Below are positions 61,583 to 61,678 of a stretch of DNA of 64,000 nucleotides, in pieces (positions within the stretch are counted from its first letter, which is position 1; every line of letters begins with the position of its first letter). The notes under the pieces were generated by a model. That model was not told the DNA's origin, did not search any database, and was given only the letters and a program-made list of their open reading frames with translations. The position numbers and the translations under genes are program-made. The stretch is from Spirochaetota bacterium (GTDB taxonomy: Bacteria; Spirochaetota; Spirochaetia; CAKZLE01). The stretch spans positions 3,150 to 67,149 of the forward strand of contig JBNJDX010000001.1 of assembly GCA_051745285.1 (NCBI GenBank), read 5' to 3'.

Positions 61583-61678
61583 CTAATCGTGGCAGCCTGC
61601 CACTACCTTTGAGTTTTTTGCGCAGCATTGTGCCACGGCTTTCTGATCGGCAGGTTTTTTGCTTATGAGTGATTTCAT
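61583..61678 (-). CDS. Unlisted 31-codon ORF: MKSLISKKPADQKAVAQCCAKNSKVVAGCHD (candidate precursor or carrier peptide)
   Basis: Hand translation of the minus strand. ATG (61676-61678) lies 8 nt after GAAGGAGG. It starts 22 nt after the methyltransferase stop and ends with TAG at 61583-61585, 85 nt before the radical SAM start. Three Cys, Lys-rich leader. Below the 60-aa cutoff of the ORF track. Confidence 0.55.
   Translation of the reverse strand: MKSLISKKPADQKAVAQCCAKNSKVVAGCHD

Follow-up and report, generated by a model that had tools for sequence, protein, structure and literature searches.

A conserved tri-cysteine peptide gene ahead of a radical SAM/SPASM enzyme in a spirochaete methyltransferase–thioredoxin operon

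The window, a 64,000-nucleotide stretch of DNA from a Spirochaetota bacterium, holds on its minus strand a 31-codon open reading frame (ORF) for a small peptide with three cysteines, set directly ahead of the gene for a radical S-adenosylmethionine (SAM) enzyme with a SPASM domain. This ORF is a real gene under strong purifying selection. Its translated product of about 31 residues probably serves as the dedicated substrate of the adjacent enzyme, is modified by radical SAM chemistry and stays inside the cell, where it would act with a methyltransferase and a fusion of thioredoxin and thioredoxin reductase encoded alongside it; in this account as a whole we have moderate confidence. The gene and its start signal lie as follows.

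61583 to 61678 with the stop codon, minus strand: peptide gene of 31 codons, product MKSLISKKPADQKAVAQCCAKNSKVVAGCHD
61687 to 61694, minus strand: Shine-Dalgarno sequence GAAGGAGG, with a spacer of 8 nt to the ATG (61678-61676)

Conservation and anatomy of the peptide gene

Gene order and coding constraint were compared across 80 loci from species-representative genomes, fetched through the alignment of orthologues of the radical SAM enzyme, whose relatives account for at least 595 matching stretches in such genomes. By record title the loci comprise 34 Spirochaetota, 36 Bacteroidota, 5 Ignavibacteriota, one Syntrophomonadaceae, one Myxococcales and three unclassified entries. In all 80 loci, spanning at least four named phyla, the gene for the orthologous radical SAM enzyme is immediately preceded by an ORF ending in QCCAK.S....GCHD and a stop codon, and one locus has two copies of the peptide, each ahead of its own radical SAM gene. 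An earlier reading of the sequence without database searches (the sequence-only reading) had proposed looking in related clusters for a small ORF with conserved cysteine positions and for coding constraint. The small ORF and its cysteines are thus present throughout, and the constraint is equally evident in the codons.

The 51-nt core occurs in the 80 loci as 80 distinct DNA sequences encoding 44 distinct translations. At the 12 invariant codons, the fraction of minor alleles is 0.002, 0.028 and 0.42 for codon positions 1, 2 and 3, respectively. Serine codons in the core are drawn from both TCN and AGT, the stop codon of the peptide varies among orthologues (TAA, TGA or TAG), and among the 80 distinct core sequences stops interrupt one of the remaining frames in 24 and the other in 33. 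This codon-position pattern indicates purifying selection on the protein, not on the DNA or RNA. While a 31-codon ORF taken alone could be a product of chance, conservation of this kind could not, and the ORF is therefore a real gene.

A homologue search with the neighbouring methyltransferase gave only matches of at least 67% identity; in all three methyltransferase-anchored loci the peptide again sits immediately upstream of the radical SAM gene and the whole module is present. One Bacteroidales metagenome-assembled genome (loci L039 and L043) carries two or three peptide–enzyme pairs, those of L039 at 3-98 and 3486-3596; two of the pairs are in tandem around a single thioredoxin–thioredoxin reductase gene.

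Read on the minus strand, positions 61583-61678 run ATG AAA TCA ... GGC TGC CAC GAT TAG and translate to the peptide given above. The ORF starts 22 nt past the stop of the methyltransferase gene (61701-62363) and ends 85 nt short of the start of the radical SAM gene (60181-61497), all on one strand, so that the coordinates, the ribosome-binding site GAAGGAGG 8 nt before the ATG and the position between two same-strand genes are as the sequence-only reading described them. The order on the minus strand is a MarR-family regulator, the methyltransferase, the peptide, the radical SAM enzyme, the thioredoxin–thioredoxin reductase fusion and a DUF1847 protein; the gaps of 0-85 nt on one strand make this an operon-like arrangement. 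GGAGG-like sites stand at the equivalent place in Spirochaetota and Ignavibacteriota loci. Bacteroidota loci have no GGAGG-type site before the peptide ATG, and absence of Shine-Dalgarno sequences is expected of translation initiation in that phylum.

Two competing gene models were considered and rejected. A longer form starting at a GTG at 61723 is disfavoured, since both the Shine-Dalgarno site and the conserved N-terminal MKSL favour the ATG at 61678. An overlapping ORF of 64 residues in another frame (61434-61628, minus strand), which reaches from the 3′ part of the peptide gene across the hairpin behind it to the start of the radical SAM gene, is not a gene, because stops interrupt that frame in many orthologues. 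No Rfam family was found within 58000-64000 of the window.

The peptide was at first described as unannotated, which is true of some genomes and not of others. Of the seven annotated contigs that were inspected, four show it overlooked by gene callers, among them the Marispirochaeta aestuarii entry in GenBank, whereas elsewhere it is annotated as a 'hypothetical protein', as in Spirochaeta isovalerica (MBB6478724.1). Since the peptide often goes uncalled, the radical SAM enzyme looks like an orphan in many annotations.

A profile search of 5.8 billion proteins, started from a 50-residue family member as first sequence, matched 1406 clusters at 90% identity, and an exhaustive hidden Markov model (HMM) search yielded 126 representatives at 50% identity. 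The 1406 clusters carry no Pfam domain and are named only 'hypothetical' or 'uncharacterized'. Pfam and NCBIfam (release 20.0) models gave no match for the peptide, with no NCBIfam hits at E ≤ 1, and the exact sequence found in the window had no match in a collection of 15 billion proteins.

Family members range from 28 to about 60 residues, with a mode of 31, and share one layout: an N-terminal MKSL[IVT].KK, a lysine-rich linker that varies and, closing the peptide, the invariant core AQCCAK.S....GCHD. The window peptide begins with the conserved MKSLI.KK. Within the core, C18, C19, A20, K21, G28 and C29 are essentially fixed, the cysteine triad C18, C19 and C29 being invariant; Q17 (rarely L), H30 (one R) and D31 (two N) are nearly so. 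S23 is replaced by A or G in about ten representatives, and its hydroxyl is therefore not essential. About 20 of the 121 representatives have a further CC pair in their linker, often as 'CCAP', which suggests that the CC unit itself is functional. The layout as a whole fits the leader-plus-core logic that the sequence-only reading had recognised. No double-glycine or other obvious cleavage site was seen in the leader across the family. A scan of metagenome contigs at two positions, Cys29 and Cys19, run without a positive control, returned no selenocysteine (TGA) variants. A 243-residue protein gave a weak match to the core through four tandem repeats containing VATCC[VA]KTPT, the first three continuing into [VM]SSGCRD; it is probably unrelated to the peptide and may be a translated DNA repeat.

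The gap that follows the peptide gene contains a strong RNA hairpin.

61542 to 61575, minus strand: RNA hairpin of 15 pairs, starting 7 nt past the peptide stop, with no clean U-tract

Its predicted folding energy is -36.6 kcal/mol (z = -4.2), and none of 200 dinucleotide shuffles folds as well. Among orthologous loci, z lies below -2 in 51 of 65 post-peptide gaps (median -3.7) even though their sequences are unrelated, against two of 17 gaps between the radical SAM and thioredoxin genes (Mann-Whitney p = 2e-5). Eleven loci, mostly from Bacteroidota, have a post-peptide gap of 16 nt or less and no hairpin, and U-tracts are inconsistent across the orthologous hairpins. The structure was detected by folding and was left unflagged by a consensus terminator scan. 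Its probable role is that of a leaky terminator or of an element stabilising the mRNA, either of which would raise the ratio of peptide to enzyme expression. An excess of precursor produced by way of such hairpins is common for precursor genes of ribosomally synthesized and post-translationally modified peptides (RiPPs).

The radical SAM/SPASM enzyme and its module

The genes surrounding the peptide are the following.

60181 to 61497, minus strand: radical SAM/SPASM enzyme, 438 aa, with Pfam Radical_SAM and Fer4_12
61701 to 62363, minus strand: short ArsM-type class I SAM methyltransferase, 220 aa, scoring 199.7 bits against NF008823 (cut-off 263)
58833 to 60113, minus strand: thioredoxin–thioredoxin reductase fusion, 426 aa, with Thioredoxin and Pyr_redox_2 domains and 304 bits against TIGR01292
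58254 to 58832, minus strand: DUF1847 protein, 192 aa, with a cysteine-rich N-terminus (PF08901, 120.6 bits)
62386 to 62850, minus strand: MarR-family regulator (MarR/MarR_2) at the operon head
62943 to 63845, plus strand: AEC-type transporter (auxin efflux carrier, Mem_trans), divergent from the MarR gene

The radical SAM motif of the enzyme, C92xxxC96xxC99, and a full set of seven SPASM cysteines (C331-x12-G344-x4-C349; C388-x2-C391-x5-C397-x3-C401; C417) are invariant in 15 orthologues. In an AlphaFold2 model, the N-terminal domain, comprising approximately residues 8-76, has strands at 8-11, 18-22 and 27-31 followed by helices at 33-41, 47-53 and 59-76, with predicted local distance difference test (pLDDT) values of 71-88. 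This modelled β-β-β-α-α-α domain looks like a RiPP recognition element (RRE), a likeness of topology only; Pfam PqqD gave no match in this domain.

Among NCBIfam models, the best matches of the enzyme, given as bits over the family cut-off, are to CefB (NF038107, 141/600), TIGR04463 (125/525) and PapB (NF047865, 112/340), all three being maturases of Cys-rich peptides, with further scores of 85/425 for the SCIFF maturase (TIGR03974) and 51/500 for CcpM. The closest sequence in the PDB is CteB (5wgg, E 1.7e-13), followed by anSME. A Foldseek search with the full-length model likewise placed CteB first (E 3e-10, TM-score about 0.6), then SuiB, BlsE, MoaA and anSME, with ChlB further down. MftC and PqqE were among the weaker matches of the NCBIfam and Foldseek comparisons. 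Judged by its sequence and predicted fold, the enzyme represents a new family of RRE-type radical SAM/SPASM peptide maturases, and the peptide encoded ahead of it would by far most likely be its substrate. The proposal of the sequence-only reading that the ORF is a real gene and a substrate of the adjacent enzyme is thus supported by the 80/80 synteny, selection at the protein level, the RRE-like domain and the standing of CteB as the closest match in both sequence and fold.

A search of plasmids gave only radical SAM enzymes of 29% identity, which lie in a different, bacteriocin-like cluster of Bacillus thuringiensis. There, on plasmid pIS56-233 (locus L088, 3315-6455), two tandem radical SAM/SPASM genes that NCBIfam leaves unclassified adjoin a gene for a 54-residue cysteine-rich peptide ending in ACFNCSICCDNCCFNCCFQV, together with ABC-transporter genes.

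The closest PDB matches of the methyltransferase are the ArsM structures 5evj and 4fr0. In the alignment with CmArsM, its C25, C113 and C163 fall on C72, C174 and C224, the residues that bind As(III) in CmArsM; C25, C113, C163 and C21 are invariant in 77 orthologues, while C22 and C40 are present in more than 95%. The invariant C21, with C22, sits 3-4 residues before C25, and in this alignment the C21/C22 pair may stand in for the fourth cysteine of CmArsM, C44. The 3′ end of the gene (61701-61730) encodes a cysteine tail, GGCSCQK, and a CC or CxC tail is found in 54 of 76 orthologues (CCCC, CSC and CGC elsewhere). The fusion protein has CPPC in its thioredoxin domain and CATC in its reductase. 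The true start of the MarR gene is probably the ATG at 62781.

Neighbourhoods were counted over about 4 kb on each side of the 80 loci, and the 22 most common flank families were inspected. The module has a fixed order of methyltransferase, peptide, radical SAM enzyme and thioredoxin–thioredoxin reductase. The methyltransferase is present in 78 loci, the other two being cut by the contig end, and the thioredoxin–thioredoxin reductase gene lies beside the radical SAM gene in 74, most of the remaining contigs ending before it. DUF1847, a frequent accessory, occurs in 22 loci. MarR occurs in 29 and is then always directly upstream and co-directional. A homologue of the AEC-type transporter occurs in only two of the 80 loci, and this gene is therefore probably outside the module. 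Recurrent accessories, mostly in Bacteroidota loci, are an extra thioredoxin (20 loci), DUF302 (17), DUF6132, which is a small cysteine-containing membrane protein (15), and OsmC (6). Further flank genes encode a Nitro_FeMo-Co-like protein with a histidine-rich tail (five loci) and, on the opposite strand, an IS1595-type zinc-ribbon ORF (nine). Neither a protease nor an ABC exporter was found among the conserved neighbour families.

Proposed function and alternatives

In the account that we favour, the RRE-like N-terminal domain of the enzyme would bind the N-terminal MKSLI.KK of the peptide, and the C-terminal core, AQCCAK.S....GCHD-COOH, would be brought to the radical SAM cluster and the auxiliary clusters. 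At least one cysteine would most probably be converted into a thioether cross-link, a chemistry favoured by analogy with CteB, PapB and QhpD, which likewise have seven-cysteine SPASM domains (PMC10352776); Cys29 to Asp31 is a plausible cross-link pair. The hairpin after the stop codon would allow the cell to make more of the peptide than of the enzymes. The mature peptide would be neither cleaved nor exported and could serve as an intracellular thiol ligand, carrier or cofactor of fixed sequence, its partners being the ArsM-type methyltransferase with its metalloid-binding cysteine triad and the thioredoxin–thioredoxin reductase fusion, which would keep thiols reduced. Control of the operon would lie with the MarR-type regulator. 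In this scheme we infer modification by the enzyme, thioether chemistry, an intracellular role and a link to metalloid methylation.

Several observations weigh against parts of this account. The chemistry rests on homology at a structural-alignment identity of 16-18% with CteB, and the enzyme model has a mean pLDDT of 70, falling below 50 in the SPASM region at residues 349-416. The enzyme scores under the cut-off of every curated family, no model recognises the peptide, and a specific assignment to sactipeptides or ranthipeptides, the examples named in the sequence-only reading, is accordingly not supported. The methyltransferase falls under the NF008823 cut-off (199.7 against 263 bits), covers only profile positions 59-234 of 272 and is truncated, aligning with CmArsM 70-250 and lacking the N- and C-terminal parts of ArsM. 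The conserved neighbours, taken over about 4 kb on each side of the 80 loci, include no ars genes (ArsR, Acr3/ArsB, ArsC), the regulator is MarR rather than ArsR, and the accessories (thioredoxin, OsmC, DUF302, DUF6132) suit a general thiol or oxidative stress response just as well as one to arsenic. Moreover, if all three cysteines ended up as thioethers, no thiol would be left for binding a metalloid.

The link to arsenic is consequently circumstantial. The ArsM cysteine triad, the cysteine tails and the extra CC pairs argue for it, whereas the lack of ars genes, a regulator of the MarR family and accessories of the oxidative-stress type argue against it. The soft-metalloid S3 site that had been suggested for the three cysteines draws the same circumstantial support, with CC or CxC tails in about 70% of methyltransferases, but the peptide has no sequence homology to ArsD or ArsR in the Pfam and NCBIfam comparison. 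A more far-reaching form of the proposal, which we consider unlikely, has the peptide as a thiol carrier tailored by the radical SAM enzyme that would give As(III), or Sb, Se, Te or Hg, to the truncated ArsM-type methyltransferase while the thioredoxin–thioredoxin reductase fusion recycles the thiols. If true, anaerobes would have a route of metalloid methylation that depends on a peptide and possibly ends in an organometalloid bound to that peptide. Were the radical SAM enzyme to forge a C-As or C-S-As link, its product would be the first RiPP to contain a metalloid.

The peptide might instead remain unmodified or merely redox-cycled, a tri-thiol metallochaperone whose Cys18, Cys19 and Cys29 hand As(III) or another soft metal(loid) to the methyltransferase while the radical SAM enzyme acts elsewhere. 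It would then replace the role that As(GS)3 has in glutathione-containing organisms, and the Cys12-Cys13-Cys18 site of ArsD is a precedent for an S3 metallochaperone. The invariance of the vicinal pair and third cysteine, the additional CC pairs in about 20 of 121 linkers, the retention of the ArsM triad and frequent CC or CxC tail in the methyltransferase and the obligate thioredoxin–thioredoxin reductase fusion all agree with such a role. However, the peptide gene always directly precedes an RRE-type maturase whose nearest relatives modify Cys-rich peptides; A16, Q17, A20, K21, G28, H30, D31 and the MKSLI motif are conserved too, needlessly for a simple S3 site; and ars genes are not nearby. 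We judge a metallochaperone of this kind improbable. Even less can be said for an attenuation device in which ribosomes stalling at the cysteine codons control the hairpin in response to cysteine or thiols and the product itself is functionless. A short ORF with adjacent cysteine codons and, in most loci, a strong hairpin within 7 nt would suit it, yet selection acts on amino acids across the whole core while synonymous change is free, so that the ORF overlaps neither a conserved stretch of RNA nor an alternative pairing. The 11 loci whose gaps of 16 nt or less leave no room for a hairpin, the inconsistent U-tracts, and the conservation of the N-terminal motif and C-terminal HD without a regulatory reason add to this. 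Amino-acid conservation with synonymous freedom, together with the hairpin-free loci, brings the idea close to refutation.

A classical antimicrobial or signalling RiPP would have its core cross-linked by the radical SAM enzyme and tailored by the methyltransferase on S, N or O, with cleavage and export genes at unlinked sites. The leader-plus-core layout beside a radical SAM/SPASM enzyme with an RRE-like domain, a hairpin after the precursor gene of the sort common in RiPP clusters, and the distant Bacillus thuringiensis plasmid relatives in a typical bacteriocin-like cluster are all in keeping with it. Antimicrobial RiPP cores diversify, though, whereas this one is practically the same from one phylum to the next. 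The 80 loci share no conserved protease, exporter or immunity gene, the leader has no double-glycine or other obvious cleavage site, and the conserved partners are of redox and metalloid types, the methyltransferase keeping a metalloid-binding cysteine triad for which an enzyme that methylates peptides would have no use. We give this explanation little weight. The frozen core and the lack of protease, exporter and immunity genes argue against a secreted antibiotic, and a classical secreted lifestyle of the RiPP kind finds no support in the conserved neighbourhood. It is similarly doubtful that the peptide is the precursor of an excised redox cofactor, in which GCHD or CC would be cross-linked and cut out, with methylation yielding a cofactor of the thiol or thioether kind. 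The invariant C-terminal core, the RRE-like radical SAM/SPASM enzyme, the intracellular context, a wide and patchy distribution and the presence of MftC and PqqE among the weaker matches speak for such a precursor. Against it, the neighbourhood has no conserved peptidase (an analogue of MftE or PqqF/G) and no cofactor-dependent dehydrogenase, and the whole 16-residue core is constrained rather than merely two or three residues.

An intracellular substrate of the radical SAM enzyme thus remains our preferred explanation of the peptide. In our reading, the locus is a precursor–maturase pair of the radical SAM/SPASM kind obligately embedded in a methyltransferase–thioredoxin module, and it behaves like a cofactor or carrier system; the core frozen across phyla and the lack of export machinery make it more carrier-like or cofactor-like than antibiotic-like. 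A description of the peptide or module was not found in the literature covered, which included a Bacteroidales RiPP-mining paper; the primary papers on 'organometallic' selenoproteins lay outside that coverage, and they may hold a prior mention.

The operon has so far been read as an 'orphan' radical SAM enzyme beside an 'arsenite methyltransferase/UbiE', a misreading that arises because gene callers often miss the peptide. With the peptide recognised, it becomes a testable four-component system for RiPP research, and the peptides form a large unnamed family, with 1406 clusters and members in Spirochaetota, Bacteroidota, Ignavibacteriota, Firmicutes and Myxococcota. In the loci examined, the locus marks a distinct truncated ArsM-like clade in anaerobes that is tied to a tri-cysteine peptide and a thioredoxin system. 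The presence of arsM predicts methylation poorly in anaerobes, and a truncated ArsM-like clade could bear on that. Two cultured species, Marispirochaeta aestuarii (GCA_002087085.1) and Spirochaeta isovalerica (GCA_014207565.1), carry the module, which makes experiments feasible.

Comparison with known systems

The nearest parallels are SCIFF (CteA-CteB) and freyrasin (PapA-PapB), in which a ranthipeptide precursor is paired with a thioether-forming radical SAM/SPASM maturase. As in these systems, a small cysteine-containing precursor is encoded beside a radical SAM/SPASM enzyme of about 440 residues with an N-terminal RRE-type domain, and like CteB and PapB the window enzyme has an intact seven-cysteine SPASM domain and matches in part the models for PapB and the SCIFF maturase. 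However, it scores far below the cut-offs of both (PapB 112/340; SCIFF 85/425), and the peptide does not match the SCIFF model. The window module also differs in its cross-phylum invariant core, its obligate ArsM-type methyltransferase and thioredoxin–thioredoxin reductase fusion, and its lack of a conserved protease or exporter.

The best full-length HMM matches of the enzyme are to CefB (NF038107, the 'Cys-every-fifth' maturase) and TIGR04463, extending over residues 1-434 and including the N-terminal domain, and the substrates of both are Cys-rich peptides. In contrast, the window peptide has its CC...C motif at the C-terminus and other neighbours, and scores of 141/600 and 125/525 place the window enzyme in a family separate from either. 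To our knowledge, neither the CefB nor the TIGR04463 family has a characterised member.

Mycofactocin (MftA/MftC) and PQQ (PqqA/PqqE) biosynthesis share a very short precursor with a C-terminal motif, an RRE-dependent radical SAM/SPASM enzyme, an intracellular product and a patchy distribution across phyla. The window module has a methyltransferase and a thioredoxin–thioredoxin reductase in place of a peptidase and a cofactor-using dehydrogenase, and its motif is based on cysteine, whereas theirs are based on Tyr, Glu and Val.

Likeness to arsenic-handling proteins is found in the methyltransferase, whose three aligned As(III)-binding cysteines are those of ArsM, and in the peptide, whose vicinal pair and third cysteine recall the MBS1 site of ArsD. 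Unlike ArsM, the window methyltransferase has 220 residues, falls below the NF008823 cut-off and has no ars operon genes adjacent. Its CC or CxC tail brings to mind the metal-shuttling C-terminal cysteine pairs of HgcB and MerA.

A further comparison is offered by the small C-terminal selenocysteine or cysteine proteins of 'organometallic' neighbourhoods, namely the UXX-star families, SaoC with its Cys-Cys-COOH end and the ArsM-fusion selenoproteins described by Haft, as listed in a review (PMC13188914). The window peptide differs from them in matching none of their NCBIfam models, and they are not reported to come with a radical SAM/SPASM maturase–precursor pair. It nevertheless resembles these proteins in having a reactive cysteine three residues from the C-terminus (C-H-D-stop, or 'CXX-star') and a vicinal CC, and in its association with an ArsM-like methyltransferase and thioredoxin-type proteins.

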